Positions 5,155 through 35,188 of a stretch of 64,000 bases of DNA are shown piece after piece (within the stretch, counting starts at the first letter, position 1; every line of letters starts with the position of its first letter). The translations under genes and the position numbers were made by a program. The DNA lies in contig JBECUI020000040.1 in the NCBI GenBank assembly GCA_040954595.2, forward strand, positions 1-64,000. The letters run 5' to 3'. The notes under the pieces were generated by a model. It was not told the origin of the DNA. It saw nothing but the letters and a program-made list of their open reading frames with translations, and did no database searches. The DNA comes from Balanoglossus misakiensis (taxonomy: Eukaryota; Animalia; Hemichordata).

Positions 5155-5196
5155 TACATACTATCCTATACATACTAACTTATACATACTATCTCA
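5155..5196 (-). promoter_or_regulatory. Cassette A: three 14-bp direct repeats (plus strand TACATACTA-N5) just upstream of the RBS; also at 17506-17547, 19639-19680 and 24227-24268
   Basis: tacatactatccta tacatactaactta tacatactatctca. On the coding strand each unit contains TAGTAT, which resembles a -10 box. Function is inferred. Confidence 0.55.
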
Positions 5197-5409: not shown

Positions 5410-7329
5410 TTAGAAGGTCGTCACAGTCCACGTAGCACCACCCCATGTTCCACCATCAGCGGGATAGCCCTGTGAATCGGCAGGGATTTGCAGTTCGAGG
5501 CCAGCAGCGATCGAGGGAAAAGTCAGGTCTGTCACGCTTGGAGCCATGGCAGCTTCTATCCTCACCGTTTTGAGTGCTGTGTTGTTAAAAACAAACCTAT
5601 TGATGGTAGTAACGGAAGCAGGAATAGTGACACTGGCTAGAGAGGTACAATTCTGAAAAAGACTCTCTTCAATGTTTGTAACTCCAAAAGGAATAGTGAC
5701 ACTGGTTAGTGAGGTACAATTCTGAAAAGCTTGCAGTCCAATGCTTGTAACTCCCAAAGGAATAGTGACACTGGTTAGTGAGGTACAATTCTGAAAAGCA
5801 AGCTGTCCAATGCTTGTAACTCCAAAAGGAATAGTGACACTGGTTAGTGAGGTACAATCCTTAAAAGCAAACAGTCCTATACTCGTAACCGAGTCAGGTA
5901 TGCTAACAGATGTCATTTTATAGTCCTGAAATCCAGATCTATCAATACTTGTCACCAGCTTCTCTGTTCCGCTATCATCAAAAACCTTCGGAATTACTAA
6001 GGCGCCAGTAAACGTAGAATCATGCCCTCCAACGCTCCCAGTATAGGCCATACCCTCAAGAACCTTCAGGGTAATGGGCAACTCTAAACTTCCGGTGTAA
6101 TTCCCACTCCCCCTTACGGTTATGGTGAAGGTATTGTTACCTGTGCTTGTCACAGATGTCGGCGTGCCTAGTATCCTGCCGCTTATAACATTGCCATCAG
6201 CATCTTTCTCAAAATCTAAGCCTGCCGGTAAGGCCGGGCTAACTTCATAGCTGAGCTGCGCATCTGCTGGGACCTCTCCAGCAGAGAAAAGCAGTTCAAG
6301 TGATGTGTTAACAAGGTAGCCTTCGTCAACGCTATAGCTCATGGAGGAAGCTCTAATGTCTCTTGGGCTTATCTCCAGGGTAAGGGCGGCTGTCTTGGTG
6401 CCCCTGAAAGTACCGAAACCCTCGGCGCTAACGGTATAGGAATACTCACCGAAATCCATAGTGCTATTAGCCTCCAGGGTCAAAACGCCGGTGCTGCTGT
6501 TAAAAGACAGATCAGACGGTGGTGCAGGGTCAATGCTGTACCGGAGGGTCTGATCCACATCGCTCTGGCCTGACCATACCGGGCTGGCGCTGGATGATGT
6601 GGGGAAAGCGTATTCGGCAATGAGGCGGCTGTAGGTGAATGTCCCGCTAATCTCGGTTAGGGGAACTGTGGGATCGATGACAACAACAAACAGATCGGCT
6701 GTTATTGTTCCCCTATAGTTGCCCCTACCCTGGGCTGTCACAGTATAAGAATATTCACCGACAGACAGCGTGCTCTCCAGGCTCAGTACACCCGTCTCTG
6801 AGTTAAAACTTGCACCCGCAGCAGCTGAGGGGCTGATGCTGTAGCTAAGGGTCTGATTCGCATCTTCTTGACCAGTCCATACAGGCTCCACGCTGCCCAC
6901 GCTGCCCTCATCGACACTGATTCGTTCATACGAGAAGGTTCCAGTAATCACAGAAGCCTCGGGATCAAAAACGCTGAAGCTTATTATTGCCGTTAGCCTC
7001 CCCCCGTAGCTTCCCTGGCCCTGGACCCTAACGGTGTAGGTATAGTCACCGACAAGCGCCGTGCTGCCTATGCTGAGAATACCTGTCTCTGGATCAAAGG
7101 TTATACCCTCAGCAGGTGAGGGGCTGATGCTGTAGCTAAAGGTCTGATTCGCATCTTCCTGCCCTGTCCATACAGGCTCCACGCTGCCCCCCGTACCCTC
7201 AGCAAATTCAAGGCCCTGTCCATAGCTCAATGTACCGGTAATGGAGGTTTTCATTTCCGTATCACAGGAAAACATGGCTGCCAGGAGCAATAAGGAGGTA
7301 AAAACAATTCCTAAGTTTGTCCATTTCAT
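5410..7329 (-). CDS. BspA/TpLRR leucine-rich-repeat surface lipoprotein with Ig-like stalk (cassette B)
   Basis: 23-aa repeats SLTSVTIPxGVTSIGxxAFxxC. The start is placed at MKWTNLGIVFTSLLLLAAMFSC (signal peptide plus lipobox Cys) rather than at the TTG at 7407. Confidence 0.9.
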   Translation of the reverse strand: MKWTNLGIVFTSLLLLAAMFSCDTEMKTSITGTLSYGQGLEFAEGTGGSVEPVWTGQEDANQTFSYSISPSPAEGITFDPETGILSIGSTALVGDYTYTVRVQGQGSYGGRLTAIISFSVFDPEASVITGTFSYERISVDEGSVGSVEPVWTGQEDANQTLSYSISPSAAAGASFNSETGVLSLESTLSVGEYSYTVTAQGRGNYRGTITADLFVVVIDPTVPLTEISGTFTYSRLIAEYAFPTSSSASPVWSGQSDVDQTLRYSIDPAPPSDLSFNSSTGVLTLEANSTMDFGEYSYTVSAEGFGTFRGTKTAALTLEISPRDIRASSMSYSVDEGYLVNTSLELLFSAGEVPADAQLSYEVSPALPAGLDFEKDADGNVISGRILGTPTSVTSTGNNTFTITVRGSGNYTGSLELPITLKVLEGMAYTGSVGGHDSTFTGALVIPKVFDDSGTEKLVTSIDRSGFQDYKMTSVSIPDSVTSIGLFAFKDCTSLTSVTIPFGVTSIGQLAFQNCTSLTSVTIPLGVTSIGLQAFQNCTSLTSVTIPFGVTNIEESLFQNCTSLASVTIPASVTTINRFVFNNTALKTVRIEAAMAPSVTDLTFPSIAAGLELQIPADSQGYPADGGTWGGATWTVTTF

Positions 7330-7563
7330 CTTGCCACACCCCCTTCCATAGCCAAGGGAGGCATGGGAGCTTGACAGCTCAGCGACCCTGAATCCTGATG
7401 GGAACAAGGCCAGGATGGAAGTGAGGCGAATGAAATGTGAGGGAATAGAAAAAAGCCAGGCTTCCTTTTATATTCTAACTCACGTGAGTGAGTGAGTGAG
7501 TGAGTGAGTGAGTGAGTGAGTGAGTGAGTGAGTGAGTGAGTGAGTGAGTGAGTTCATACGCAT
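7326..7563 (-). promoter_or_regulatory. Leader ORF region: AAGGAG, ATG CGT ATG AAC (TCAC)n, with one frame ending at a TGA that overlaps the lipoprotein ATG
   Basis: SD at 7567-7572, in-frame ATGs at 7563 and 7557, TGA at 7326-7328 overlapping ATG at 7327-7329. The same layout precedes all five cassette B genes. Confidence 0.75.
7484..7551 (-). repeat. (TCAC)17 microsatellite
   Basis: 68 bp of perfect (GTGA)n on the plus strand. Confidence 0.95.
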
Positions 7564-7596
7564 AGTCTCCTTATCAGTTTGGTTTGTAATTGGCCT

Positions 7597-7625
7597 AGTT
7601 TACTTTAATGATTCTTTTTTGTCAA
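7597..7625 (-). promoter_or_regulatory. Sigma70-type promoter TTGACA-N17-TAAACT (also at 10181-10209, 12701-12729, 15204-15232, 22081-22109)
   Basis: Consensus -35, 17-nt spacer, near-consensus -10 and an A-rich upstream tract. Conserved in all five cassette B copies. Confidence 0.8.
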
Positions 7626-7945
7626 GATTGTTTTTTTAAATACAAAAATTACCTGCCGTGGAAATCCTAACGGGAAGCCTGTCTCCCTTTCCTTGCTTAT
7701 ACCGCCTCAACTCTGAGGAAACGGTATAAGGTTAGGAAAGGGGTTCTTGGTCTAAGGTGAAAGGATTGAGTGAAACAAGGAGTTTTCAAGGATGCGTTAA
7801 AGAGTCTCCAAAGATCCCCCTCAGGGCTTTTCGGAGACTCTGGCTGGGCCACAACCCCATAAAGCCCGCCTTAGACGTCTGGGGGCAAATAAGAAGATTC
7901 TTCTTATTGTTACCCCCCCCCAGACTGCCTGGGACAAAAAAGCTA

Positions 7946-9865
7946 TTAGAAGGTCGTCACAGTCCACGTAGCACCACCCCATGTTCCACCATTAGCAGGA
8001 TAGCCCTGTGAACCGGCAGGGATTTGCAGTTCGGGGTCAGCAGCGATCGAGAAAAAAGTCGTGTCTGTCACGCTTGGAGCCATGGCAGCTTCTATCCTCA
8101 CCGTTTTGAGTGCTGTGCTGGCAAAAGCAAACCTATTGATGGTAGTAACGGAAGCAGGAATAGTGACACTGGCTAGAGAGGTACAATTCTGAAAAAGACT
8201 CTCTTCAATGCTTGTAACTCCCAAAGGAATAGTGACACTGGTTAGTGAGGAACAATTCTGAAAAGCACTCACACCAATGCTTGTAACTCCAAAAGGAATA
8301 GTGACACTGGTTAGTGAGCTACAATTCAGAAAAGCACCATCTCCAATGCTTGTAACTCCAAAAGGAATAGTGACACTGGCTAGAGAGGGACAACCCTCAA
8401 AAGCACTCCCTCCAATACTCGTAACCGAGTCAGGTATGCTAACAGATGTCATTTTATAGCTCTGAAATCCAACTCTAGCAATACTTGTCACCAGCTTCTC
8501 TGTTCCGCCATCATCAAAAACCTTCGGAATTACTAAGGCGCCAGTAAACGTAGAATCATGCCCTCCAACGCTCCCAGAGTAGGCCATACCCTCAAGAACC
8601 TTCAGGGTAATGGGCAACTCTAAACTTCCGGTGTAATTCCCACTCCCCCTTACGGTTATGGTGAAGGTATTGTTACCTGTGCTTGTCACAGCTGTCGGCG
8701 TGCCTAGTATCCTGCCGCTTATAACATTGCCATCAGCATCTTTCTCAAAATCTAAGCCTGCCGGTAAGGCCGGGCTAACTTCATAGCTGAGCTGCGCATC
8801 TGCAGGGACCTCTCCAGCAGAGAAAAGCAGTTCAAGTGATGTGTTAACAAGGTAGCCTTCGTCAACGCTATAGCTCATGGAGGAAGCTCTAATGTCTCTT
8901 GGGCTTATCTCCAGGGTAAGGGCGGCTGTTTTGCTGCCCTTGAAAGTACCGAAACCCTCGGCGCTAACGGTATAGGAATACTCACCGAGATCCATAGTGC
9001 TATTAGCCTCCAGGGTCAAAACGCCGGTGCTGCTGTTAAAAGACAGATCAGACGGTGGTGCAGGGTCAATGCTGTACCGGAGGGTCTGATCCACATCGCT
9101 CTGGCCTGACCATACCGGGCTGGCGCTGGATGATGTGGGGGAAGCGTATTCGGCCATGAGGCGGCTGTAGGTGAATGTCCCGCTAATCTCGGTTAGGGGA
9201 ACTGTGGGATCGATGACAACAACAAACAGTTCAGCTGTTATTGTTCCCCTATAGTTGCCCCTACCCTGGGCTGTCACAGTATAAGAATATTCACCGACAG
9301 ACAGCGTGCTCTCCAGGCTCAGTACACCCGTCTCTGAGTTAAAACTTGCACCCGCAGCAGCTGAGGGGCTGATGCTGTAGCTAAGGGTCTGATTCGCATC
9401 TTCCTGACCAGTCCATACAGGTTCCACGCTGCCCACGCTGCCCTCATCGACACTGATTCGTTCATACGAGAAGGTTCCAGTAATCACAGAAGCCTCGGGA
9501 TCAAAAACGCTGAAGCTTATTATTGCCGTTAGCCTCCCCCCATAGCTGCCCTGGCCCTGGACCCTAACGGTGTAGGTATAGTCACCGGCAAGCACCGTGC
9601 TGCCTATGCTGAGAATACCTGTCTCTGAATCAAAGGTTATACCCTCAGCAGGTGAGGGGCTGATGCTGTAGCTAAAGGTCTGATTCGCATCTTCCTGCCC
9701 TGTCCATACAGGCTCCACGCTGCCCCCCGTACCCTCAGCAAATTCAAGGCCCTGTCCATAGCTCAATGTACCGGTAATGGAGGTTTTCATTTCCGTATCA
9801 CAGGAAAACATGGCTGCCAGGAGCAATAAGGAGGTAAAAACAATTCCTAAGTTTGTCCATTTCAT
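7946..9865 (-). CDS. BspA/TpLRR surface lipoprotein with Ig-like stalk (cassette B)
   Basis: ORF 7946..9943, start reassigned to MKWTN; LRR repeats and lipobox present. Confidence 0.9.
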   Translation of the reverse strand: MKWTNLGIVFTSLLLLAAMFSCDTEMKTSITGTLSYGQGLEFAEGTGGSVEPVWTGQEDANQTFSYSISPSPAEGITFDSETGILSIGSTVLAGDYTYTVRVQGQGSYGGRLTAIISFSVFDPEASVITGTFSYERISVDEGSVGSVEPVWTGQEDANQTLSYSISPSAAAGASFNSETGVLSLESTLSVGEYSYTVTAQGRGNYRGTITAELFVVVIDPTVPLTEISGTFTYSRLMAEYASPTSSSASPVWSGQSDVDQTLRYSIDPAPPSDLSFNSSTGVLTLEANSTMDLGEYSYTVSAEGFGTFKGSKTAALTLEISPRDIRASSMSYSVDEGYLVNTSLELLFSAGEVPADAQLSYEVSPALPAGLDFEKDADGNVISGRILGTPTAVTSTGNNTFTITVRGSGNYTGSLELPITLKVLEGMAYSGSVGGHDSTFTGALVIPKVFDDGGTEKLVTSIARVGFQSYKMTSVSIPDSVTSIGGSAFEGCPSLASVTIPFGVTSIGDGAFLNCSSLTSVTIPFGVTSIGVSAFQNCSSLTSVTIPLGVTSIEESLFQNCTSLASVTIPASVTTINRFAFASTALKTVRIEAAMAPSVTDTTFFSIAADPELQIPAGSQGYPANGGTWGGATWTVTTF

Positions 9866-10020
9866 CTTGCCACACCCCCTTCCATAGCCAAGGGAGGCAT
9901 GGGAGCTTGACAGCTCAGCGACCCTGAATCCTGATGGGAACAAGGCCAGGATGGAAGTGAGGCGAATGAAATGTGAGGGAATAGAAAAAAGCCAGGCTTC
10001 CTTTTTATATTCTAACTCAC

Positions 10021-10136
10021 GTGAGTGAGTGAGTGAGTGAGTGAGTGAGTGAGTGAGTGAGTGAGTGAGTGAGTGAGTGAGTGAGTGAGTGAGTGAGTGA
10101 GTGAGTGAGTGAGTGAGTGAGTGAGTGAGTGAGTGA
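10021..10136 (-). repeat. (TCAC)29 microsatellite
   Basis: 116 bp of perfect (GTGA)n. Confidence 0.95.
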
Positions 10137-10525
10137 GTTCATACGCATAGTCTCCTTATCAGTTTGGTTTGAATTGGCCTAGTTTACTTTAATGATTCTT
10201 TTTTGTCAAGAGTGTTTTTTTAAATACAAAAATTACCTGCCGTGGAAATCCTAACGGGAAGCCTGTCTCCCTTTCTTTGCTTATACCGCCTCAACTCTGA
10301 GGAAACGGTATAAGGTTAGGAAAGGGGTTCCTGGTCTAAGGTGAAAGGATTGAGTGAAGCAAGGAGTTTTCAAGGATGCGTTAAAGAAGCTCCAAAGATC
10401 CCCCTCAGGGCTTTTCGGAGACTCTGGCTGGGCCACAACCCCATAAAGCCCGCCTTAGACGTCTGGGGGGGGAATAAGAAGGTTCTTCTTATTCCCCCCC
10501 CAGACTGCCTGGGACAAAAAAGCTA

Positions 10526-12445
10526 TTAGAAGGTCGTCACAGTCCACGTAGCACCACCCCATGTTCCACCATCAGCGGGATAGCCCTGTGAATCGGCAGG
10601 GATTTGCAGTTCGAGGCCAGCAGCGATCGAGGGAAAAGTCAGGTCTGTCACGCTTGGAGCCATGGCAGCTTCTATCCTCACCGTTTTGAGTGCTGTGTTG
10701 TTAAAAACAAACCTATTGATGGTAGTAACGGAAGCAGGAATAGTGACACTGGCTAGAGAGGTACAACCTTGAAAAAGACTCGCACCAATGCTTGTAACTC
10801 CCAAAGGAATAGTGACACTGGTTAGTGAGGTACAATTCTGAAAAGCTTCCAGTCCAATGCTTGTAACTCCCAAAGGAATAGTGACACTGGTTAGTGAGGT
10901 ACAACCCCAAAAAGCACCATCTCCAATGCTTGTAACTCCCAAAGGAATAGTGACACTGGCTAGAGAGGTACAACCCGAAAAAGCTTGCGTTCCAATACTC
11001 CTAACAGAGTCAGGTATGCTAACAGATGTCATTTTATAGTCCTGAAATCCAGTAATAGCAATACTTGTCACCAGCTTCTCTGTTCCGCTATCATCAAAAA
11101 CCTTCGGAATTACTATGGCGCCAGTAAACGTAGAATCATGCCCTCCAACGCTCCCAGAATAGGCCATACCCTCAAGAACCTTCAGGGTAATGGGCAACTC
11201 TAAACTTCCGGTGTAATTCCCACTCCCCCTTACGGTTATGGTGAAGGTATTGTTACCTGTGCTTGTCACAGCTGTCGGCGTGCCTAGTATCCTGCCGCTT
11301 ATAACATTGCCAGCAGCATCTTTCTCAAAATCTAAGCCTGCCGGTAAGGCCGGGCTAGCTTCATAGCTGAGCTGCGCATCTGCAGGGACCTCTCCAGCAG
11401 AGAAAAGCAGTTCAAGTGATGTGTTAACAAGGTAGCCTTCGTCAACGCTATAGCTCATGGAGGAAGCTCTAATGTCTCTTGGGCTTATCTCCAGGGTAAG
11501 GGCGGCTGTTTTGCTGCCCTTGAAAGTACCGAAACCCTCGGCGCTAACGGTATAGGAATACTCACCGAGATCCATAGTGCTATTAGCCTCCAGGGTCAAA
11601 ACGCCGGTGCTGCTGTTAAAAGACAGATCAGACGGTGGTGCAGGGTCAATGCTGTACCGGAGGGTCTGATCCACATCGCTCTGGCCTGACCATACCGGGC
11701 TGGCGCTGGATGATGTGGGGGAAGCGTATTCGGCCATGAGGCGGCTGTAGGTGAATGTCCCGCTAATCTCGGTTAGGGGAACTGTGGGATCGATGACAAC
11801 AACAAACAGATCGGCTGTGATTGTTCCCCTATAGTTGCCCCTACCCTGGGCTGTCACAGTATAAGAATATTCACCGACAGACAGCGTGCTCTCCAGGCTC
11901 AGTACACCCGTCTCTGAGTTAAAACTTGCACCCTCAGCAGCTGAGGGGCTGATGCTGTAGCTAAGGGTCTGATTCGCATCTTCCTGACCAGTCCATACAG
12001 GCTTCACGCTGCCCACGCTGCCCTCATCGACACTGATTCGTTCATACGAGAAGGTTCCAGTAATCACAGAAGCCTCGGGATCAAAAACGCTGAAGCTTAT
12101 TATTGCCGTTAGCCTCCCCCCGTAGCTTCCCTGGCCCTGGACCCTAACGGTGTAGGTATAGTCACCGGCAAGCACCGTGCTGCCTATGCTGAGAATACCT
12201 GTCTCTGAATCAAAGGTTATACCCTCAGCAGGTGAGGGGCTGATGCTGTAGCTAAAGGTCTGATTCGCATCTTCCTGCCCTGTCCATACAGGCTCCACGC
12301 TGCCCCCCGTACCCTCAGCAAATTCAAGGCCCTGTCCATAGCTCAATGTACCGGTAATGGAGGTTTTCATTTCCGTATCACAGGAAAACATGGCTGCCAG
12401 GAGCAATAAGGAGGTAAAAACAATTCCTAAGTTTGTCCATTTCAT
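10526..12445 (-). CDS. BspA/TpLRR surface lipoprotein with Ig-like stalk (cassette B)
   Basis: ORF 10526..12523, start reassigned to MKWTN. Confidence 0.9.
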   Translation of the reverse strand: MKWTNLGIVFTSLLLLAAMFSCDTEMKTSITGTLSYGQGLEFAEGTGGSVEPVWTGQEDANQTFSYSISPSPAEGITFDSETGILSIGSTVLAGDYTYTVRVQGQGSYGGRLTAIISFSVFDPEASVITGTFSYERISVDEGSVGSVKPVWTGQEDANQTLSYSISPSAAEGASFNSETGVLSLESTLSVGEYSYTVTAQGRGNYRGTITADLFVVVIDPTVPLTEISGTFTYSRLMAEYASPTSSSASPVWSGQSDVDQTLRYSIDPAPPSDLSFNSSTGVLTLEANSTMDLGEYSYTVSAEGFGTFKGSKTAALTLEISPRDIRASSMSYSVDEGYLVNTSLELLFSAGEVPADAQLSYEASPALPAGLDFEKDAAGNVISGRILGTPTAVTSTGNNTFTITVRGSGNYTGSLELPITLKVLEGMAYSGSVGGHDSTFTGAIVIPKVFDDSGTEKLVTSIAITGFQDYKMTSVSIPDSVRSIGTQAFSGCTSLASVTIPLGVTSIGDGAFWGCTSLTSVTIPLGVTSIGLEAFQNCTSLTSVTIPLGVTSIGASLFQGCTSLASVTIPASVTTINRFVFNNTALKTVRIEAAMAPSVTDLTFPSIAAGLELQIPADSQGYPADGGTWGGATWTVTTF

Positions 12446-12599
12446 CTTGCCACACCCCCTTCCATAGCCAAGGGAGGCATGGGAGCTTGACAGCTCAGCG
12501 ACCCTGAATCCTGATGGGAACAAGGCCAGGATGGAAGTGAGGCGAATGAAATGTGAGGGAATAGAAAAAAGCCAGGCTTCCTTTTATATTCTAACTCAC

Positions 12600-12655
12600 G
12601 TGAGTGAGTGAGTGAGTGAGTGAGTGAGTGAGTGAGTGAGTGAGTGAGTGAGTGA
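12600..12655 (-). repeat. (TCAC)14 microsatellite
   Basis: 56 bp of perfect (GTGA)n. Confidence 0.95.
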
Positions 12656-13049
12656 GTTCATACGCGTAGTCTCCTTATCAGTTTGGTTTGTAATTGGCCT
12701 AGTTTACTTTAATGATTCTTTTTTGTCAAGAGTGTTTTTTTAAATACAAAAATTACCTGCCGTGGAAATCCTAACGGGAAGCCTGTCTCCCTTTCTTTGC
12801 TTATACCGCCTCAACTCTGAGGAAACGGTATAAGGTTAGGAAAGGGGTTCCTGGTCTAAGGTGAAAGGATTGAGTGAAGCAAGGAGTTTTCAAGGATGCG
12901 TTAAAGAAGCTCCAAAGATCCCCCTCAGGGCTTTTCGGAGACTCTGGCTGGGCCACAACCCCATAAAGCCCGCCTTAGACGTCTGGGGGCAAATAAGAAG
13001 ATTCTTCTTATTGTTACCCCCCCCCAGACTGCCTGGGACAAAAAAGCTA

Positions 13050-14897
13050 TTAGAAGGTCGTCACAGTCCACGTAGCACCACCCCATGTTCCACCATTAGC
13101 GGGATAGCCCTGTGAACCGGCAGGAATTTGCAGTTCGGGGTCAGCAGCGATCGAGAAAAAAGTCGTGTCTGTCACGCTTGGAGCCATGGCAGCTTCTATT
13201 CTCACCGTTTTGAGTGCTGAGATGGTAAAAGCAACAGCTCCAATGCTTGTAACTCCCAAAGGAATAGTGACACTGGTTAGCGAAGTACCCTGAAAAGCAC
13301 CAAAACCAATGCTTGTAACTCCCAAAGGAATAGTGACACTGGTTAGTGAGTTACAAACCTGAAAAGCAAACTGTCCAATGCTTGTAACTCCCAAAGGAAT
13401 AGTGACACTGGTTAGAGAGGTACAACCCGAAAAAGCTTGCGTTCCAATACTCCTAACAGAGTCAGGTATGCTAACAGATGTCATTTTATAGCTCTGAAAT
13501 CCATTATCAGCAATACTTGTCACCAGCTTCTCTGTTCCGCCATCATCAAAAACCTTCGGAATTACTATGGCGCCAGTAAACGTAGAATCATGCCCTCCAA
13601 CGCTCCCAGTATAGGCCATACCCTCAAGAACCTTCAGGGTAATGGGCAACTCTAAACTTCCGGTGTAATTCCCACTCCCCCTTACGGTTATGGTGAAGGT
13701 ATTGTTACCTGTGCTTGTCACAGATGTCGGCGTGCCTAGTATCCTGCCGCTTATAACATTGCCATCAGCATCTTTCTCAAAATCTAAGCCTGCCGGTAAG
13801 GCCGGGCTAACTTCATAGCTGAGCTGCGCATCTGCTGGGACCTCTCCAGCAGAGAAAAGCAGTTCAAGTGATGTGTTAACAAGGTAGCCTTCGTCAACGC
13901 TATAGCTCATGGAGGAAGCTCTAATGTCTCTTGGGCTTATCTCCAGGGTAAGGGCGGCTGTTTTGCTGCCCTTGAAAGTACCGAAACCCTCGGCGCTAAC
14001 GGTATAGGAATACTCACCGAGCTCCATAGTGCTATTAGCCTCCAGGGTCAAAACGCCGGTGCTGCTGTTAAAAGACAGATCAGACGGTGGTGCAGGGTCA
14101 ATGCTGTACCGGAGGGTCTGATCCACATCGCTCTGGCCTGACCATACCGGGCTGGCGCTGGATGATGTGGGGAAAGCGTATTCGGCCATGAGGCGGCTGT
14201 AGGTGAATGTCCCGCTAATCTCGGTTAGGGGAACTGTGGGATCGATGACAACAACAAACAGATCGGCTGTTATTGTTCCCCTATAGTTGCCCCTACCCTG
14301 GGCTGTCACAGTATAAGAATATTCACCGACAAGCGCCGTGCTGCCTATGCTGAGAATACCTGTCTCTGAATCAAAAGTTATACCCTCAGCAGGTGAGGGG
14401 CTGATGCTGTAGCTAAAGGTCTGATTCGCATCTTCCTGACCTGTCCATACAGGCTCCACGCTGCCCACGCTGCCCTCATCGACACTGATTCGTTCATACG
14501 AGAAGGTTCCAGTAATCACAGAAGCCTCGGGATCAAAAACGCTGAAGCTTATTATTGCCGTTAGCCTCCCCCCATAGCTGCCCTGGCCCTGGACCCTAAC
14601 GGTGTAGGTATAGTCACCGGCAAGCACCGTGCTGCCTATGCTGAGAATACCTGTCTCTGGATCAAAAGTTATACCCTCAGCAGGTGAGGGGCTGATGCTG
14701 TAGCTAAAGGTCTGATTCGCATCTTCCTGCCCTGTCCATACAGGCTCCACGCTGCCCCCCGTACCCTCAGCAAATTCAAGGCCCTGTCCATAGCTCAATG
14801 TACCGGTAATGGAGGTTTTCATTTCCGTATCACAGGAAAACATGGCTGCCAGGAGCAATAAGGAGGTAAAAACAATTCCTAAGTTTGTCCATTTCAT
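13050..14897 (-). CDS. BspA/TpLRR surface lipoprotein with Ig-like stalk (cassette B, one LRR fewer)
   Basis: ORF 13050..14975, start reassigned to MKWTN. Confidence 0.9.
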   Translation of the reverse strand: MKWTNLGIVFTSLLLLAAMFSCDTEMKTSITGTLSYGQGLEFAEGTGGSVEPVWTGQEDANQTFSYSISPSPAEGITFDPETGILSIGSTVLAGDYTYTVRVQGQGSYGGRLTAIISFSVFDPEASVITGTFSYERISVDEGSVGSVEPVWTGQEDANQTFSYSISPSPAEGITFDSETGILSIGSTALVGEYSYTVTAQGRGNYRGTITADLFVVVIDPTVPLTEISGTFTYSRLMAEYAFPTSSSASPVWSGQSDVDQTLRYSIDPAPPSDLSFNSSTGVLTLEANSTMELGEYSYTVSAEGFGTFKGSKTAALTLEISPRDIRASSMSYSVDEGYLVNTSLELLFSAGEVPADAQLSYEVSPALPAGLDFEKDADGNVISGRILGTPTSVTSTGNNTFTITVRGSGNYTGSLELPITLKVLEGMAYTGSVGGHDSTFTGAIVIPKVFDDGGTEKLVTSIADNGFQSYKMTSVSIPDSVRSIGTQAFSGCTSLTSVTIPLGVTSIGQFAFQVCNSLTSVTIPLGVTSIGFGAFQGTSLTSVTIPLGVTSIGAVAFTISALKTVRIEAAMAPSVTDTTFFSIAADPELQIPAGSQGYPANGGTWGGATWTVTTF

Positions 14898-15051
14898 CTT
14901 GCCACACCCCCTTCCATAGCCAAGGGAGGCATGGGAGCTTGACAGCTCAGCGACCCTGAATCCTGATGGGAACAAGGCCAGGATGGAAGTGAGGCGAATG
15001 AAATGTGAGGGAATAGAAAAAAGCCAGGCTTCCTTTTATATTCTAACTCAC

Positions 15052-15159
15052 GTGAGTGAGTGAGTGAGTGAGTGAGTGAGTGAGTGAGTGAGTGAGTGAG
15101 TGAGTGAGTGAGTGAGTGAGTGAGTGAGTGAGTGAGTGAGTGAGTGAGTGAGTGAGTGA
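15052..15159 (-). repeat. (TCAC)27 microsatellite
   Basis: 108 bp of perfect (GTGA)n. Confidence 0.95.
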
Positions 15160-15555
15160 GTTCATACGCATAGTCTCCTTATCAGTTTGGTTTGAATTGG
15201 CCTAGTTTACTTTAATGATTCTTTTTTGTCAAGAGTGTTTTTTTAAATACAAAAATTACCTGCCGTGGAAATCCTAACGGGAAGCCTGTCTCCCTTTCTT
15301 TGCTTATACCGCCTCAACTCTGAGGAAACGGTATAAGGTTAGGAAAGGGGTTCCTGGTCTAAGGTGAAAGGATTGAGTGAAACAAGGAGTTTTCAAGGAT
15401 GCGTTAAAGAGTCTCCAAAGATCCCCCTCAGGGCTTTTCGGAGACTCTGACTGGGCCACAACCCCATAAAGCCCGCCTTAGACGTCTGGGGGGCAAATAA
15501 GAAGATTCTTCTTATTGTTCTTCCCCCCCCCAGACTGCCTGGGACAAAAAAGCTA

Positions 15556-17481
15556 TTAGAAGGTCGTCACAGTCCACGTAGCACCACCCCATGTTCCACC
15601 ATTAGCGGGATAGCCCTGTGAATCGGCAGGAATTTGCAGTTCGGGGTCAGGAGCGATCGAGGGAAAAGTCAGGTCTGTCACGCTTGGAGCCATGGCAGCT
15701 TCTATCCTCACCGTTTTGAGTGCTGTGTTGGTAAAAGCAAGCCTATTGATGGTAGTAACGGAAGCAGGAATAGTGACACTGGCTAGAGAGGTACAATTCT
15801 GAAAAAGACTCTCTTCAATGTTTGTAACTCCAAAAGGAATAGTGACACTGGTTAGTGAGGAACAACCCCAAAAAACAGCCCCTCCAATGCTTGTAACTCC
15901 CAAAGGAATAGTGACACTGGTTAGTGAGGTACAATTCTTAAAAGCAAGCTGTCCAATGCTTGTAACTCCCAAAGGAATAGTGACACTGGTTAGTGAGGTA
16001 CAACCAGAAAAAGCACTCACTCCTATACTCGTAACCGAGTCAGGTATGCTAACAGATGTCATTTTATAGTCCTGAAATCCAGTAATAGCAATACTTGTCA
16101 CCAGCTTCTCTGTTCCGCTATCATCAAAAACCTTCGGAATTACTAAGGCGCCAGTAAACGTAGAATCATGCCCTCCAACGCTCCCAGAGTAGGCCATACC
16201 CTCAAGAACCTTCAGGGTAATGGACAACTCTAAACTTCCGGTGTAATTCCCACTCCCCCTTACGGTTATGGTGAAGGTATTGTTACCTGTGCTTGTCACA
16301 GCTGTCGGCGTGCCTAGTATCCTGCCGCTTATAACATTGCCATCAGCATCTTTCTCAAAATCTAAGCCTGCCGGTAAGGCCGGGCTAACTTCATAGCTGA
16401 GCTGCGCATCTGCTGGGACCTCTCCAGCAGAGAAAAGCAGTTCAAGTGATGTGTTAACAAGGTAGCCTTCGTCAACGCTATAGCTCATGGAGGAAGCTCT
16501 AATGTCTCTTGGGCTTATCTCCAGGGTAAGGGCGGCTGTCTTGGTGCCCCTGAAAGTACCGAAACCCTCGGCGCTAACGGTATAGGAATACTCACCGAAA
16601 TCCATAGTGCTATTAGCCTCCAGGGTCAAAACGCCGGTGCTGCTGTTAAAAGACAGATCAGACGGTGGTGCAGGGTCAATGCTGTACCGGAGGGTCTGAT
16701 CCACATCGCTCTGGCCTGACCATACCGGGCTGGCGCTGAATGATGTGGGGAAAGCGTATTCGGCCATGAGGCGGCTGTAGGTGAATGTCCCGCTAATCTC
16801 GGTTAGGGGAACTGTGGGATCGATGACAACAACAAACAGATCGGCTGTTATTGTTCCCCTATAGTTGCCCCTACCCTGGGCTGTCACAGTATAAGAATAT
16901 TCACCGACAAGCGCCGTGCTGCCTATGCTGAGAATACCTGTCTCTGAATCAAAAGTTATACCCGCAGCAGCTGAGGGGCTGATGCTGTAGCTAAGGGTCT
17001 GATTCGCATCTTCCTGACCAGTCCATACAGGCTCCACGCTGCCCTCGCTGCCCTCATCGACACTGATTCGTTCATACGAGAAGGTTCCAGTAATCACAGA
17101 AGCCTCGGGATCAAAAACGCTGAAGCTTATAATTGCCGTTAGCCTCCCCCCATAGCTGCCCTGGCCCTGGACCCTAACGGTGTAGGTATAGTCACCGGCA
17201 AGCGCCGTGCTGCCTATGCTGAGAATACCTGTCTCTGAATCAAAGGTTATACCCTCAGTAGGTGAGGGGCTGATGCTGTAGCTAAAGGTCTGATTCGCAT
17301 CTTCCTGCCCTGTCCATACAGGCTCCACGCTGCCCCCCGTACCCTCAGCAAATTCAAGGCCCTGTCCATAGCTCAATGTACCGGTAATGGAGGTTTTCAT
17401 TTCCGTATCACAGGAAAACATGGCTGCCAGGAGCAATGCCCAGGAGAGGCCATGAAAGATTCGAATGCTTGTTAACTTCAT
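15556..17481 (-). CDS. BspA/TpLRR surface lipoprotein with Ig-like stalk (cassette A)
   Basis: MKLTSIRIFHGLSWALLLAAMFSC signal peptide and lipobox, AAGGAG RBS, LRR repeats. Confidence 0.9.
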   Translation of the reverse strand: MKLTSIRIFHGLSWALLLAAMFSCDTEMKTSITGTLSYGQGLEFAEGTGGSVEPVWTGQEDANQTFSYSISPSPTEGITFDSETGILSIGSTALAGDYTYTVRVQGQGSYGGRLTAIISFSVFDPEASVITGTFSYERISVDEGSEGSVEPVWTGQEDANQTLSYSISPSAAAGITFDSETGILSIGSTALVGEYSYTVTAQGRGNYRGTITADLFVVVIDPTVPLTEISGTFTYSRLMAEYAFPTSFSASPVWSGQSDVDQTLRYSIDPAPPSDLSFNSSTGVLTLEANSTMDFGEYSYTVSAEGFGTFRGTKTAALTLEISPRDIRASSMSYSVDEGYLVNTSLELLFSAGEVPADAQLSYEVSPALPAGLDFEKDADGNVISGRILGTPTAVTSTGNNTFTITVRGSGNYTGSLELSITLKVLEGMAYSGSVGGHDSTFTGALVIPKVFDDSGTEKLVTSIAITGFQDYKMTSVSIPDSVTSIGVSAFSGCTSLTSVTIPLGVTSIGQLAFKNCTSLTSVTIPLGVTSIGGAVFWGCSSLTSVTIPFGVTNIEESLFQNCTSLASVTIPASVTTINRLAFTNTALKTVRIEAAMAPSVTDLTFPSIAPDPELQIPADSQGYPANGGTWGGATWTVTTF

Positions 17482-17760
17482 CTCAAGAAACTCCTTTTCT
17501 TAAATTACATACTATCCTATACATACTAACTTATACATACTATCTCATTTCTGGAAAATCATAGAATATTGGAGAGATTTTCTGCCTGATAAGGGAGCTT
17601 AGCTGGAGTTTGTGGCTCTTATGGACCTGTTAGAAAGATTAGAGAGGCGCACTGGCTTACGGGGCTCAGCGTTGGAACACAAACCCATCTTAGACGTCTG
17701 GGGGGGGAATAAGAAGGTTCTTCTTATTCCCCCCCCAGACTGCCTGGGACAAAAAAGCTA

Positions 17761-19614
17761 TTAGAAGGTCGTCACAGTCCACGTAGCACCACCCCATGTT
17801 CCACCATCAGCGGGATAGCCCTGTGAATCGGCAGGAATTTGCAGTTCGGGGTCAGCAGCGATCGAGGTAAAAGTCGTGTTTATCACGCTTGGAGCCATGG
17901 CAGCTTCTATTCTCACCGTTTTGAGTGCTGGGCTGATAAAAGCATCTCCTCCAATGATAGTAATGGAAGCAGGAATAGTGACACTGGTTAGCGCAGTATC
18001 CTGAAAAGAAGCTCCGTAAATGATAGTAACTCCCAAAGGAATAGTGACACTGGCTAGAGAGGTACAACCTTGAAAAAGACTCCCTGCAATGTTTGTAACT
18101 CCAAAAGGAATAGTGACACTGGTTAGAGAGGTACAACCAGAAAAAGCAAAACCTCCTATACTCGTAACCGAGTCAGGTATGCTAACAGATGTCATTTTAT
18201 AGTCCTGAAATCCAGATCTATCAATACTTGTCACCAGCTTCTCTGTTCCGCTATCATCAAAAACCTTCGGAATTACTATGGCGCCAGTAAACGTAGAATC
18301 ATGCCCTCCAACGCTCCCAGAATAGGCCATACCCTCAAGAACCTTCAGGGTAATGGGCAACTCTAAACTTCCGGTGTAATTCCCACTCCCCCTTACGGTT
18401 ATGGTGAAGGTATTGTTACCTGTGCTTGTCACAGCTGTCGGCGTGCCTAGTATCCTGCCGCTTATAACATTGCCATCAGCATCTTTCTCAAAATCTAAGC
18501 CTGCCGGTAAGGCCGGGCTAACTTCATAGCTGAGCTGCGCATCTGCTGGGACCTCTCCAGCAGAGAAAAGCAGTTCAAGTGATGTGTTAACAAGGTAGCC
18601 TTCGTCAACGCTATAGCTCATGGAGGAAGCTCTAATGTCTCTTGGGCTTATCTCCAGGGTAAGGGCGGCTGTCTTGGTGCCCCTGAAAGTACCGAAACCC
18701 TCGGCGCTAACGGTATAGAAATACTCACCGAGTTCCATAGTGCTATTAGCCTCCAGGGTCAAAACGCCGGTGCTGCTGTTAAAAGACAGATCAGACGGTG
18801 GTGCAGGGTCAATGCTGTACCGGAGGGTCTGATCCACATCGCTCTGGCCTGACCATACCGGGCTGGCGCTGGATGATGTGGGGAAAGCGTATTCGGCCAT
18901 GAGGCGGCTGTAGGTGAATGTCCCGCTAATCTCGGTTAGGGGAACTGTGGGATCGATGACAACAACAAACAGTTCAGCTGTTATTGTTCCCCTATAGTTG
19001 CCCCTACCCTGGGCTGTCACAGTATAAGAATATTCACCGACAAGCGCCGTGCTGCCTATGCTGAGAATACCTGTCTCTGAATCAAAAGTTATACCCGCAG
19101 CAGCTGAGGGGCTGATGCTGTAGCTAAGGGTCTGATTCGCATCTTCTTGACCAGTCCATACAGGCTCCACGCTGCCCACGCTGCCCTCATCGACACTGAT
19201 TCGTTCATACGAGAAGGTTCCAGTAATCACAGAAGCCTCGGGATCAAAAACGCTGAAGCTTATTATTGCCGTTAGCCTCCCCCCATAGCTGCCCTGGCCC
19301 TGGACCCTAACGGTGTAGGTATAGTCACCGGCAAGCACCGTGCTGCCTATGCTGAGAATACCTGTCTCTGGATCAAAAGTTATACCCTCAGCAGGTGAGG
19401 GGCTGATGCTGTAGCTAAAGGTCTGATTCGCATCTTCCTGTCCTGTCCATACAGGCTCCACGCTGCCCCCCGTACCCTCAGCAAATTCAAGGCCCTGTCC
19501 ATAGCTCAATGTACCGGTAATGGAGGTTTTCATTTCCGTATCACAGGAAAACATGGCTGCCAGGAGCAATGCCCAGGAGAGGCCATGAAAGATTCGAATG
19601 CTTGTTAACTTCAT
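17761..19614 (-). CDS. BspA/TpLRR surface lipoprotein with Ig-like stalk (cassette A)
   Basis: 617-aa ORF with the same architecture. Confidence 0.9.
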   Translation of the reverse strand: MKLTSIRIFHGLSWALLLAAMFSCDTEMKTSITGTLSYGQGLEFAEGTGGSVEPVWTGQEDANQTFSYSISPSPAEGITFDPETGILSIGSTVLAGDYTYTVRVQGQGSYGGRLTAIISFSVFDPEASVITGTFSYERISVDEGSVGSVEPVWTGQEDANQTLSYSISPSAAAGITFDSETGILSIGSTALVGEYSYTVTAQGRGNYRGTITAELFVVVIDPTVPLTEISGTFTYSRLMAEYAFPTSSSASPVWSGQSDVDQTLRYSIDPAPPSDLSFNSSTGVLTLEANSTMELGEYFYTVSAEGFGTFRGTKTAALTLEISPRDIRASSMSYSVDEGYLVNTSLELLFSAGEVPADAQLSYEVSPALPAGLDFEKDADGNVISGRILGTPTAVTSTGNNTFTITVRGSGNYTGSLELPITLKVLEGMAYSGSVGGHDSTFTGAIVIPKVFDDSGTEKLVTSIDRSGFQDYKMTSVSIPDSVTSIGGFAFSGCTSLTSVTIPFGVTNIAGSLFQGCTSLASVTIPLGVTIIYGASFQDTALTSVTIPASITIIGGDAFISPALKTVRIEAAMAPSVINTTFTSIAADPELQIPADSQGYPADGGTWGGATWTVTTF

Positions 19615-19893
19615 CTCAAGAAACTCCTTTTCTTAAATTACATACTATCCTATACATACTAACTTATACATACTATCTCATTTCTGGAAAATCATAGAAT
19701 ATTGGAGAGATTTTCTGCCTGATAAGGGAGCTTAGCTGGAGTTTGTGGCTCTTATGGACCTGTTAGAAAGATTAGAGAGGCGCACTGGCTTACGGGGCTC
19801 AGCGTTGGAACACAAACCCATCTTAGACGTCTGGGGGGGGAATAAGAAGGTTCTTCTTATTCCCCCCCCAGACTGCCTGGGACAAAAAAGCTA

Positions 19894-21813
19894 TTAGAAG
19901 GTCGTCACAGTCCACGTAGCACCACCCCATGTTCCACCATCAGCGGGATAGCCCTGTGAATCGGCAGGGATTTGCAGTTCGAGGCCAGCAGCGATCGAGG
20001 GAAAAGTCAGGTCTGTCACGCTTGGAGCCATGGCAGCTTCTATCCTCACCGTTTTGAGTGCTGTGTTGTTAAAAACAAACCTATTGATGGTAGTAACGGA
20101 AGCAGGAATAGTGACACTGGCTAGAGAGGTACAATTCTGAAAAAGACTCTCTTCAATGTTTGTAACTCCAAAAGGAATAGTGACACTGGTTAGTGAGGTA
20201 CAATTCTGAAAAGCTTGCAGTCCAATGCTTGTAACTCCAAAAGGAATAGTGACACTGGTTAGTGAGGTACAATTCTGAAAAGCAAGCTGTCCAATGCTTG
20301 TAACTCCAAAAGGAATAGTGACACTGGTTAGTGAGGTACAATCCTTAAAAGCAAACAGTCCTATACTCGTAACCGAGTCAGGTATGCTAACAGATGTCAT
20401 TTTATAGCTCTGAAATCCAGCAGTAACAATACTTGTCACCAGCTTCTCTGTTCCGCTATCATCAAAAACCTTCGGAATTACTATGGCGCCAGTAAACGTA
20501 GAATCATGCCCTCCAACGCTCCCAGAGTAGGCCATACCCTCAAGAACCTTCAGGGTAATGGGCAACTCTAAACTTCCGGTGTAATTCCCACTCCCCCTTA
20601 CGGTTATGGTGAAGGTATTGTTACCTGTGCTTGTCACAGATGTCGGCGTGCCTAGTATCCTGCCGCTTATAACATTGCCATCAGCATCTTTCTCAAAATC
20701 TAAGCCTGCCGGTAAGGCCGGGCTAACTTCATAGCTGAGCTGCGCATCTGCTGGGACCTCTCCAGCAGAGAAAAGCAGTTCAAGTGATGTGTTAACAAGG
20801 TAGCCTTCGTCAACGCTATAGCTCATGGAGGAAGCTCTAATGTCTCTTGGGCTTATCTCCAGGGTAAGGGCGGCTGTCTTGGTGCCCCTGAAAGTACCGA
20901 AACCCTCGGCGCTAACGGTATAGGAATACTCACCGAAATCCATAGTGCTATTAGCCTCCAGGGTCAAAACGCCGGTGCTGCTGTTAAAAGACAGATCAGA
21001 CGGTGGTGCAGGGTCAATGCTGTACCGGAGGGTCTGATCCACATCGCTCTGGCCTGACCATACCGGGCTGGCGCTGAATGATGTGGGGAAAGCGTATTCG
21101 GCCATGAGGCGGCTGTAGGTGAATGTCCCGCTAATCTCGGTTAGGGGAACTGTGGGATCGATGACAACAACAAACAGTTCAGCTGTTATTGTTCCCCTAT
21201 AGTTGCCCCTACCCTGGGCTGTCACAGTATAAGAATATTCACCGACAAGCGCCGTGCTGCCTATGCTGAGAATACCTGTCTCTGAATCAAAAGTTATACC
21301 CGCAGCAGCTGAGGGGCTGATGCTGTAGCTAAAGGTCTGATTCGCATCTTCCTGACCTGTCCATACAGGCTCCACGCTGCCCACGCTGCCCTCATCGACA
21401 CTGATTCGTTCATACGAGAAGGTTCCAGTAATCACAGAAGCCTCGGGATCAAAAACGCTGAAGCTTATTATTGCCGTTAGCCTCCCCCCATAGCTGCCCT
21501 GGCCCTGGACCCTAACAGTGTAGGTATAGTCACCGGCAAGCGCCGTGCTGCCTATGCTGAGAATACCTGTCTCTGAATCAAAGGTTATACCCTCAGTAGG
21601 TGAGGGGCTGATGCTGTAGCTAAAGGTCTGATTCGCATCTTCCTGCCCTGTCCATACAGGCTCCACGCTGCCCCCCGTACCCTCAGCAAATTCAAGGCCC
21701 TGTCCATAGCTCAATGTACCGGTAATGGAGGTTTTCATTTCCGTATCACAGGAAAACATGGCTGCCAGGAGCAATAAGGAGGTAAAAACAATTCCTAAGT
21801 TTGTCCATTTCAT
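19894..21813 (-). CDS. BspA/TpLRR surface lipoprotein with Ig-like stalk (cassette B)
   Basis: ORF 19894..21891, start reassigned to MKWTN. Confidence 0.9.
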   Translation of the reverse strand: MKWTNLGIVFTSLLLLAAMFSCDTEMKTSITGTLSYGQGLEFAEGTGGSVEPVWTGQEDANQTFSYSISPSPTEGITFDSETGILSIGSTALAGDYTYTVRVQGQGSYGGRLTAIISFSVFDPEASVITGTFSYERISVDEGSVGSVEPVWTGQEDANQTFSYSISPSAAAGITFDSETGILSIGSTALVGEYSYTVTAQGRGNYRGTITAELFVVVIDPTVPLTEISGTFTYSRLMAEYAFPTSFSASPVWSGQSDVDQTLRYSIDPAPPSDLSFNSSTGVLTLEANSTMDFGEYSYTVSAEGFGTFRGTKTAALTLEISPRDIRASSMSYSVDEGYLVNTSLELLFSAGEVPADAQLSYEVSPALPAGLDFEKDADGNVISGRILGTPTSVTSTGNNTFTITVRGSGNYTGSLELPITLKVLEGMAYSGSVGGHDSTFTGAIVIPKVFDDSGTEKLVTSIVTAGFQSYKMTSVSIPDSVTSIGLFAFKDCTSLTSVTIPFGVTSIGQLAFQNCTSLTSVTIPFGVTSIGLQAFQNCTSLTSVTIPFGVTNIEESLFQNCTSLASVTIPASVTTINRFVFNNTALKTVRIEAAMAPSVTDLTFPSIAAGLELQIPADSQGYPADGGTWGGATWTVTTF

Positions 21814-21967
21814 CTTGCCACACCCCCTTCCATAGCCAAGGGAGGCATGGGAGCTTGACAGCTCAGCGACCCTGAATCCTGATGGGAACAAGGCCAGGAT
21901 GGAAGTGAGGCGAATGAAATGTGAGGGAATAGAAAAAAGCCAGGCTTCCTTTTATATTCTAACTCAC

Positions 21968-22035
21968 GTGAGTGAGTGAGTGAGTGAGTGAGTGAGTGAG
22001 TGAGTGAGTGAGTGAGTGAGTGAGTGAGTGAGTGA
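21968..22035 (-). repeat. (TCAC)17 microsatellite
   Basis: 68 bp of perfect (GTGA)n. Confidence 0.95.
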
Positions 22036-22432
22036 GTTCATACGCATAGTCTCCTTATCAGTTTGGTTTGTAATTGGCCTAGTTTACTTTAATGATTCTT
22101 TTTTGTCAAGAGTGTTTTTTTAAATACAAAAATTACCTGCCGTGGAAATCCTAACGGGAAGCCTGTCTCCCTTTCTGTGCTTATACCGCCTCAACTCTGA
22201 GGAAACGGTATAAGGTTATGAAAGAGGTTCCTGGTCTAAGGTGGAAGGATTGAGTGAAACAAGGAGTTTTCAAGGATGCGTTAAAGAAGCTCCAAAGATC
22301 CCCTCAGGGCTTTTCGGAGACTCTGGCTGGGCCACAACCCCATAAAGCCCGCCTTAGACGTCTGGGGGGCAAATAAGAAGATTCTTCTTATTGTTCTTCC
22401 CCCCCCCCAGACTGCCTGGGACAAAAAAGCTA

Positions 22433-24202: not shown

Positions 24203-24561
24203 CTCAAGAAACTCCTTTTCTTAAATTACATACTAACTTATACATACTATCCTATACATACTATCTCATTTCTGGAAAATCATAGAATATTGGAGAGATT
24301 TTCTGCCTGATAAGGGAGCTTAGCTGGAGTTTGTGGCTCTTATGGACCTGTTAGAAAGATTAGAGAGGCGCACTGGCTTACGGGGCTCAGCGTTGAAACA
24401 CAAACCCAAGTTCTACCAGTATTGCTGAGGCAAAGTTCTACAATCTTTGACAATGCCTTATTCTTATTGGTCCTGACAGGCCAAGCGGCTGGTCCTTTAC
24501 CAAGCCCAAGGCATTCCTTAAGCTTATAAAAGAGTCGCAGCTACAGGGAAGAGGCCTGTTT

Positions 24562-34503: not shown

Positions 34504-35188
34504 TGTGAAAAGAGTTCCAAATGGGCTCCGCCGAGGGGGGGGAAGCTATTATTTTTAAAGGTTTCCTTGCAACAGGATGCTCAAAGTCCAGGGATCTGGC
34601 ATGAAGACAGATACTCCTGGGGGAACTGGTTTCTCTGGCTCCATACTTGCAATCTCCTACAATAGGAGAGCCTATCGTAGAGAATTGAACCCGAATCTGA
34701 TGATGACGGCCAGTAAGAAGTGTTACCTCTACCAAAAAATATTTCCCAACCGATTCAAGACAGCGGTAACTCAGCCTGGCCAGCTTAGCCCCAGGAATCC
34801 CTGGACATACGGAGCAGGATTTGTTGCTGCTTTTGTCTTTCTTGAGAAAATGGACCAGTTCGCCCTCGGGGAGTTGGGGAAGTTTCTCGATAACGGTCCA
34901 ATAAACTTTTCTAACCAGACCATCCCGGAATAAGGCCGTGAGTCGGGATAACATTTTGGAAGTTTTGGCTACAAGTAGAACCCCGCTACAGGGACGATCG
35001 AGGCGGTGGGGCTGTCCTAAAAAGACATTTCCAGACTTGGCATCTCTTTTTTTGATATAGGTTTTTAGAATGTCGGACACACAAGGATCACCACCACCAT
35101 CCCCCTGGCTGAGGGTTCCTGGAGCCTTGTTCACTACTATTAGATGATTATCTTCGTAGAGAATTTGGGGGATTTTTATGTTTTCCAT
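34490..35188 (-). CDS. RluA family pseudouridine synthase
   Basis: HRLD, TGRHHQIRV, PIVGD and LHA motifs. Confidence 0.9.
   Translation of the reverse strand: MENIKIPQILYEDNHLIVVNKAPGTLSQGDGGGDPCVSDILKTYIKKRDAKSGNVFLGQPHRLDRPCSGVLLVAKTSKMLSRLTALFRDGLVRKVYWTVIEKLPQLPEGELVHFLKKDKSSNKSCSVCPGIPGAKLARLSYRCLESVGKYFLVEVTLLTGRHHQIRVQFSTIGSPIVGDCKYGARETSSPRSICLHARSLDFEHPVARKPLKIIASPPSAEPIWNSFHNVAG

Follow-up and report, generated by a model that had tools for sequence, protein, structure and literature searches.

A TCAC-repeat leader upstream of five lipoprotein genes of a spirochaetal array, a candidate phase switch acting through translational coupling

The window analysed here is the stretch of 64,000 nucleotides (nt) that opens contig JBECUI020000040.1 (positions 1 to 64,000, forward strand) of the Balanoglossus misakiensis assembly GCA_040954595.2. 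The minus strand of its first 24 kb carries a tandem array: about ten paralogues, each roughly 590-640 codons long. The subject of this text is a repeat-containing leader found upstream of five of them, considered mainly at the gene that starts at position 7329. The complete array genes encode a signal peptide with a terminal Cys, immunoglobulin (Ig)-like repeats and BspA-type leucine-rich repeats (LRRs). They are called lipoprotein genes from the signal with its Cys, judged by eye, and from hydropathy; their products are probably located at the cell surface and may function as adhesins. The protein encoded by gene 7329 belongs to the BspA-type LRR family, with 127 bits against PF13306 (LRR_5; curated cut-off 27.7), and scores 54 bits against PF05345. 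The named best matches of the V-ATPase subunit B encoded in the window are Spirochaetales proteins (identity up to 88%) and the host of this DNA is therefore taken to be an uncultured spirochaete.

The array has two kinds of upstream module. Type-A genes are preceded by a short region with an ordinary Shine-Dalgarno sequence (SD), while type-B genes (starts 21813, 14897, 12445, 9865 and 7329) have an upstream region of 600-660 nt that carries the repeat leader. The n-region of the signal peptide also differs between the two types. The stalks of the paralogues between 5410 and 24202 are 97-99% identical, while the number of LRRs and the residues at LRR positions vary. Raw counts of non-synonymous differences per codon pair (not dN/dS) amount to 0.188 in the LRR part versus 0.039 in the stalk. 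The paralogues thus diverge mainly in their LRR part, so that switching them independently would alter the binding surfaces displayed. The LRR blocks of genes 7329 and 21813 are almost identical, and each of the two has 17 repeat units in its leader; this likeness and the uniform stalks look like the outcome of gene conversion or recent duplication.

The type-B region of gene 7329 comprises a sigma-70-type promoter match, a leader SD, two in-frame start codons and a long tract of TCAC repeats (Table 1). These elements were described in an original prediction made from the letters of the DNA, and all are present where it placed them: the promoter boxes on the minus strand (TTGACA at 7625-7620 and TAAACT at 7602-7597, spaced by 17 nt, with 10 of 12 matches), the SD TAAGGAG at 7573-7567, the leader start ATG CGT ATG AAC with its ATGs at 7563 and 7557, and a perfect, stop-free (TCAC)17. 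The promoter match is weak when taken alone (2 sites versus 0.8 expected in 7200-8050) and is placed identically in all five copies of the region. The second leader ATG (7557) is the likelier true start; the first one is replaced by ACG in cassette 12445. Apart from the five TCAC tracts, the window has no perfect tetranucleotide run with at least 4 units. As background, (TCAC)6 is present in just 2 of 401 genomes sampled from another phylum, at three loci with degenerate tracts and without leader. Note that the end of the tract and the next six bases (7478-7489) form a perfect 12-bp palindrome which contains both early stop codons described below.

The number of units, n, sets where leader translation would end. 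The three outcomes put forward in the original prediction were reproduced by scripting n: the frame closes at TAG 7477 when n mod 3 = 0 and at TGA 7482 when n mod 3 = 2, while at n mod 3 = 1 it remains open for 52 further codons and terminates at TGA 7328-7326, which overlaps the lipoprotein ATG at 7329. The leader has accordingly 26-27 codons at n = 15 and n = 17 versus 77 at n = 16. Two frames shut within 30 nt with the third one open up to the overlap are found in 0.9% of 20,000 shuffles. The codon usage of the 52-codon tail (0.626) equals that of off-frame sequence (0.625) and is below that of in-frame sequence (0.756). The tail thus looks like a track for ribosomes and not like a protein, since such usage is expected of a ribosome track.

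The leader module occurs five times, with n = 17, 29, 14, 27 and 17 (n mod 3 = 2, 2, 2, 0 and 2). The 154-nt spacer that follows the tract varies at 1 alignment column among the five copies, versus 26 of 393 columns upstream; the first part of the coding sequence shows as little variation. The ATGA overlap with the lipoprotein start and a switch that leaves the signal peptide unaltered, both part of the original prediction, hold for four of the five copies but not for copy 9865, in which A5 replaces A4 after the tract. The frame of n mod 3 = 1 runs there into the lipoprotein without overlap; at n = 28 the resulting in-frame fusion has 732 amino acids (aa), of which 93 precede the signal peptide.

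The five-fold occurrence of the module, a strong SD of the lipoprotein gene itself and a predicted lock on its start codon come in addition to what had been noted before. The lipoprotein SD, AAGGGGGTG, is presumably well matched to the anti-SD, its complementarity being judged by the consensus. A gene with its own strong SD would not become leader-dependent through the overlap alone. A sequestered SD and AUG fits coupling, because coupling needs it when the downstream gene has a good SD, and such a state is what folding predicts: both would be buried by a structure of about 120 nt in which they pair with a long-range anti-ribosome-binding-site (anti-RBS) arm, plus a backup hairpin. The region from tract end to gene start folds at -67.1 kcal/mol (z = -3.4; 0 of 200 shuffles reach this value), while the opposite strand folds more weakly (z = -1.6; -3.7 vs -2.3 for the 121-nt core). 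The computed opening of the type-B start is 28.1-28.2 kcal/mol in three of the five copies, versus a mean of 10.5 (sd 3.5, maximum 18.9) for 23 other gene starts. Three type-A starts open at 9.8-10.9 kcal/mol and the leader starts at 5.4-5.7 kcal/mol, so that the leader is predicted to be accessible and the lipoprotein start to be shut. When the upstream part is shuffled and the start region kept fixed, 2 of 200 shuffles reach the observed opening, and 30 of 2000 do so in a duplex test. An origin of the anti-RBS pairing from transposon ends was considered and appears less likely, as RNA pairing better explains the strand asymmetry and the large number of G-U pairs.

The predicted lock is independent of n: the opening is 26.1 kcal/mol at all eight values computed (n = 14-18 and 27-29). 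It depends in the computation on where ribosomes stand. A ribosome parked at either early stop leaves the start shut (25.7 or 28.4 kcal/mol) and a 30-nt footprint on the region of the distal arm lowers the opening to just 16-18 kcal/mol, while covering the open frame to 15 nt before its stop brings it down to 8.1 kcal/mol. Transcripts cut off at the start codon or slightly before it already have a lock of 14.6-18.9 kcal/mol.

These features are best brought together by a mechanism which we hold to be probable: slippage of the tract gates translational coupling, and the lipoprotein is ON only at n mod 3 = 1. Transcription would start from the promoter match and the leader would be translated. 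Slipped-strand mispairing within the population would change n and set the frame of leader ribosomes. In the two OFF phases a ribosome would leave the transcript at most 9 nt past the end of the tract, before the anti-RBS arm, and the lock would stay shut. At n mod 3 = 1 leader ribosomes would unwind the fold, halt at the ATGA and restart on the lipoprotein, which would then be displayed at the surface. Passage of a ribosome as such may only weaken the lock, because the backup hairpin can form, and delivery of ribosomes to the overlap would itself matter. Rho polarity on the stretch of OFF leader left untranslated may reinforce the block. With the gate placed at translation, each cassette would therefore switch alone even on read-through transcripts.

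Table 1. Coordinates of the repeat leader, the predicted lock and the related cassettes (positions in the window)
Feature	Position	Strand	Details
Sigma-70-type promoter match TTGACA-17-TAAACT	7597..7625	minus	10/12 matches; A/T-rich stretch 5'; in 5/5 type-B cassettes
Leader SD TAAGGAG	7567..7573	minus	predicted open, opening 5.4-5.7 kcal/mol
Two in-frame leader ATGs	7555..7563	minus	7563 is 3 nt and 7557 is 9 nt from SD
Perfect (TCAC)17 tract	7484..7551	minus	stop-free; n mod 3 = 2, predicted OFF
Early stops of both OFF frames	TGA 7482-7480, TAG 7477-7475	minus	
First hairpin after tract	7437..7483	minus	-12.8 kcal/mol; inner stem with U run just -4.5 kcal/mol
Long-range anti-RBS arm	7417..7436	minus	18 predicted base pairs with SD and start codon (7343-7323), mean pair probability 0.95-1.0
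Local anti-SD arm	7354..7366	minus	predicted backup hairpin with 7345-7334, -19.0 kcal/mol for local fragment
Lipoprotein SD AAGGGGGTG	7337..7345	minus	7 nt 5' of ATG
ON-frame tail, 52 codons ending TGA	7326..7484	minus	off-frame-like codon usage
ATGA overlap, lipoprotein start and ON-frame stop	7326..7329	minus	
Type-B lipoprotein gene	5410..7329	minus	639 aa; signal peptide to Cys22, Ig-like repeats, BspA-type LRRs
Type-B cassette 2	7946..10148	minus	leader ATG 10148, (TCAC)29 10136-10021, gene 9865-7946, fusion variant
Type-B cassette 3	10526..12661	minus	second ATG 12661, (TCAC)14 12655-12600, gene 12445-10526; leader stop directly after tract
Type-B cassette 4	13050..15171	minus	leader ATG 15171, (TCAC)27 15159-15052, gene 14897-13050
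Type-B cassette 5	19894..22047	minus	leader ATG 22047, (TCAC)17 22035-21968, gene 21813-19894
Type-A paralogues, leaderless	starts 24202, 19614, 17481 (15556..24202), also 5130, 1230	minus	other upstream region; SD open (24202, 19614, 17481)

If this mechanism operates, a slipping repeat can control a gene solely at the initiation of translation. The module precedes five LRR paralogues with different binding tips and would generate up to 32 independent surface states. They would add to the unswitched type-A copies in a host-associated spirochaete, without recombination or change of the proteins. The locus also points to surface variation of a combinatorial kind in a lineage of uncultured spirochaetes. 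Such loci would escape surveys of repeats in coding sequences or promoters, and genes that look intact would actually be OFF. A broader proposal, for which the chances appear even, is that the locus represents a purely translational form of phase variation built as a portable module (promoter, repeat leader, double anti-RBS lock and ATGA hand-over) that converts frame into delivery of ribosomes. The locus is a clean test case, with a module of 300 nt, one predicted ON phase out of three, named helices and leaderless sister genes as control.

A number of observations weigh against coupling gated by the tract. In the assembly, no tract of the five has an n of the predicted ON phase (chance 0.13 under equal phases), and the five copies are near-identical, hence they are not independent evidence. 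Copy 9865 fuses the leader to the lipoprotein frame. The lipoprotein frame is itself open for 46 codons upstream, with a gene-like codon usage (0.699; gene 0.704). Given a G-rich SD and a C/U-rich spacer, the mean over the shuffles with a fixed start region is as high as 19.3 kcal/mol, and an open ON frame alone arises in 12.4% of shuffles. All shuffle tests were picked after the sequence was seen, and the folding is an equilibrium prediction at 37 °C. The type-A cassette 5130 has four single-base gaps per 1.4 kb relative to the reference copy, therefore single bases and n values of the assembly may be wrong; the other eight of nine cassettes tested have none. The exact junction motif had 0 matches in metagenome contigs. 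The lipoprotein stalk found only two weak loci in the genome collection, both from Clostridia, with 31-34% identity and not homologous arrays. A protein search gave 49 distant Ig-domain proteins among 7997 scored, the best with 23-35% identity over the stalk. These searches thus found no homologous locus in which the frame, the overlap or the pairing might be conserved. Finally, the overlap layout was seen at none of 23 metagenome loci with a TCAC tract (see below), for which frame lengths alone were computed. The coupling proposed originally is thus backed in part, by the anatomy of the leader, the predicted sequestration of SD and AUG, the predicted lock that does not depend on n and the negative terminator scan, but not by any copy in the ON phase or by a homologous locus.

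Frame could also act mainly on transcription: once a ribosome has left at an early stop, the naked C/U-rich leader would load Rho or form a weak terminator, and the ON ribosome would prevent this, as in the pil1 locus of Streptococcus gallolyticus. This is unlikely, although several features fit it. The 20-80 nt after the tract hold 21 C, 24 T and 7 G with 15 YC dinucleotides, and a bias of C over G characterises Rut sites according to the available part of PMC12360218. A small hairpin followed by a U run lies 15 nt after the tract, and pil1 itself is a precedent, as presented in the accessible text of PMC3894217. However, no site in 7200-8050 passes the scan for intrinsic terminators, and the best hairpin with a U run, the inner stem after the tract, has just -4.5 kcal/mol versus -28.2 for pil3 (PMC3894217, same text). 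The C/U-rich stretch is moreover predicted to be paired. Termination would also leave unexplained the arm that lies in register over SD and AUG and the exact end of the frame at the ATGA. A search of 5000-29000 with Rfam detected no riboswitch, only two chance-level snoZ178 matches.

The OFF state of all five copies would be expected if the type-B modules were silent or decayed, their locked starts making them a stock of LRR variants that recombination passes to type-A genes while tract length drifts or is partly assembly noise. The mosaic look of the paralogues agrees with this, as do the error-like indels and the odd junction of one cassette. This explanation is nevertheless quite improbable. 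All five copies have kept promoter match, SD and second ATG intact, eight of the nine cassettes tested lack single-base gaps and long perfect tracts are rare. The spacer is almost invariant when compared to the upstream region, though homogenisation could account for that.

Very unlikely in turn is a classical coding-repeat switch in which leader and lipoprotein form one continuous frame, like that of the A5 copy 9865, the A4 copies being derived or miscalled. The 732-aa fusion of that copy at n = 28 and the gene-like open frame upstream of the start codon speak for it, and direct fusion is the layout of nine of the 23 metagenome loci. Against it, two stops are found in the gene frame in four of five copies, an SD of its own stands 7 nt 5' of the gene, whose signal peptide is complete, and a fused product would have 93 residues in front of that signal peptide. 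Note that the ON phase is n mod 3 = 1 either way and that both layouts send ribosomes across the fold. Least probable of all is a frame-blind, gradual tuning of expression by tract length through messenger RNA structure or stability, as for Haemophilus influenzae hmw1A, whose repeats act gradually (PMC12721329, available part): the tract does lie in the transcribed leader and its end is able to form pairs with the next six bases, but it is unpaired with the RBS region, the opening is equal for n = 14-18 and 27-29, a strong and open SD and ATG stand directly 5' of the tract, and the stops are ordered by frame.

Slippage gating translational coupling, the reading preferred here, combines traits of systems that are known separately. 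The pil1 and pil3 leaders of S. gallolyticus carry GCAGA repeats and an intrinsic terminator and act on transcription, both out-of-frame states being high (Danne et al. 2014, PMC3894217, text available in part). The TCAC leader resembles them in that a simple repeat, inside a leader frame with its own RBS and start codon, shifts the stop of ribosomes and would control a surface-protein gene whose coding sequence is untouched. It differs in its unit, in the predicted target (a sequestered SD and AUG with an ATGA overlap), in having one predicted ON phase of three and in being repeated before five paralogues. The likeness to pil1 suggested at the outset thus extends to the repeat-containing leader and the frameshifted stop but not to an intrinsic terminator, none being detected in 7200-8050. 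Among the literature searched, pil1 is the only repeat-leader switch that has been tested, and it works through a transcription terminator.

Signal-peptide repeats give coding-repeat phase variation in Neisseria opa genes. H. influenzae mod is described as coding-repeat phase variation by slipped-strand mispairing in the available part of PMC3711429. As in mod and opa, the tract is a long perfect run of a short unit after a start codon, with ON in one of three phases and a surface protein as target. Unlike in them, it lies in a separate upstream frame in four of five copies and the product has no repeat-encoded residues; only in the A5 copy 9865, which would behave as a fusion, is the tract in the gene frame. 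Repeat number varies among the five paralogues, and TCAC also varies at an unrelated orthologous locus.

In Salmonella mgtQ-mgtB (PMC8092293) and in the coupled upstream open reading frames (uORFs) of Sinorhizobium meliloti (PMC13285730), according to the accessible parts of both reports, translation of a short upstream frame frees or feeds the downstream start. The leader would likewise need translation of the upstream frame for the downstream start. The input would be a heritable change of repeat number, unlike the physiological or fixed control that these texts describe. The stop/start overlap is found in four of five copies, while the poor, sequestered downstream start comes from computation only. 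Conservation of such overlaps across homologues is a criterion for coupling in the available part of PMC3711429, which treats phase variation and coupling as separate classes. In the 5' untranslated region of H. influenzae hmw1A the repeats are one arm of a hairpin whose length acts gradually through RNase III, as given in the text of PMC12721329 that is available. The two would share a transcribed repeat before an adhesin gene, here a putative one, and a structured leader affecting expression. The TCAC repeats, however, stand within a reading frame and outside the predicted lock, whose opening stays constant over the eight n values and does not follow repeat length. The lipoprotein itself resembles BspA/TpLRR-type surface proteins (PF13306) in its LRR_5 repeats over the cut-off, here on an Ig-like stalk, but has no close relative among the matches found. 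In the ESM Atlas it retrieved just generic LRR_5 clusters.

No description of repeat-gated translational coupling, or of such a switch in a spirochaete, was found in the literature searched (main texts, with partial coverage of subscription journals). The available parts of PMC3711429, PMC11868660, PMC12707154, PMC5909438, PMC12360218, PMC12721329 and bioRxiv 10.1101/2022.11.09.515450 describe none.

TCAC tracts are found near start codons elsewhere. A pattern search for SD-ATG-(TCAC)7 gave the 23 metagenome loci mentioned above. At nine of them a single phase opens a gene of 259-864 further codons, and two of these nine are in frame as assembled. Another nine share a flank in gene-poor DNA, probably a repeat of the animal host, and five are too short or unclear; neither group was counted as support. 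Four of the nine gene-bearing loci, together with two viral contigs, belong to one methyltransferase-like family with n = 7, 7, 8, 9, 10 and 11 and a flank identity of 87-99% among the four compared. This gene (DNA adenine type; NCBIfam matches below cut-off) carries (TCAC)7-11 immediately behind the start codon, which puts the gene in or out of frame depending on the locus, and is a candidate for phase variation. The TCAC unit is not mentioned in the main text, as far as available, of a survey of type III mod genes (PMC5909438). Five unrelated bacterial-looking genes have (TCAC)7-12 directly after the ATG with one phase open, and most of their starts are signal-peptide-like. TCAC after the start codon is thus a recurring, length-variable frameshift motif in unrelated bacteria, located there within the gene itself. 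The peptide of the ON-frame tail gave 5 matches among 1.84 billion representatives; three were inspected and discarded, being unrelated tandem-repeat proteins with scores summed over repeats.

Some other features of the window concern its assembly. Near 3395, on the minus strand, the LRR part of cassette 5130 abuts the start of the next mature protein, without promoter or signal peptide; this junction (3394-5130) is either a misassembly or a scar of recombination. The recC, recB and recD genes (37600-46500, minus strand) are all broken up by frame changes or stops, each into several pieces, and the open frame of a ubiB-like gene (35176-36177) lacks its first half, while the V-ATPase subunit B aligns in one piece. 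The breaks may be genuine decay or a local fault of the assembly; a loss of RecBCD, if real, could affect the stability of the array. Contigs from public runs (three runs of one study and one sample, none listed as RNA) were compared over 6950-7480. One set continues into the type-A signal. A contig of 271 nt (depth 6) from another set agrees with the type-B signal as far as 7329; 7330-7480 is uncovered. Such holes are uninformative, and the sample may be the one from which the window derives.

Two minus-strand hairpins lie between the stop codon of the upstream gene and the type-B promoter, a long one just 5' of the promoter (7684-7742, z = -4.2) and a second one at 7877-7925. Neither passes the terminator scan and the former perhaps serves insulation. 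Type-A genes have, just 5' of their SD, a 14-bp unit present about three times (24227-24265, 19639-19677, 17506-17544 and 5155-5193) and once at gene 1230. These units are possibly repeated -10 boxes or operator sites and would provide a second means of tuning expression in the array.

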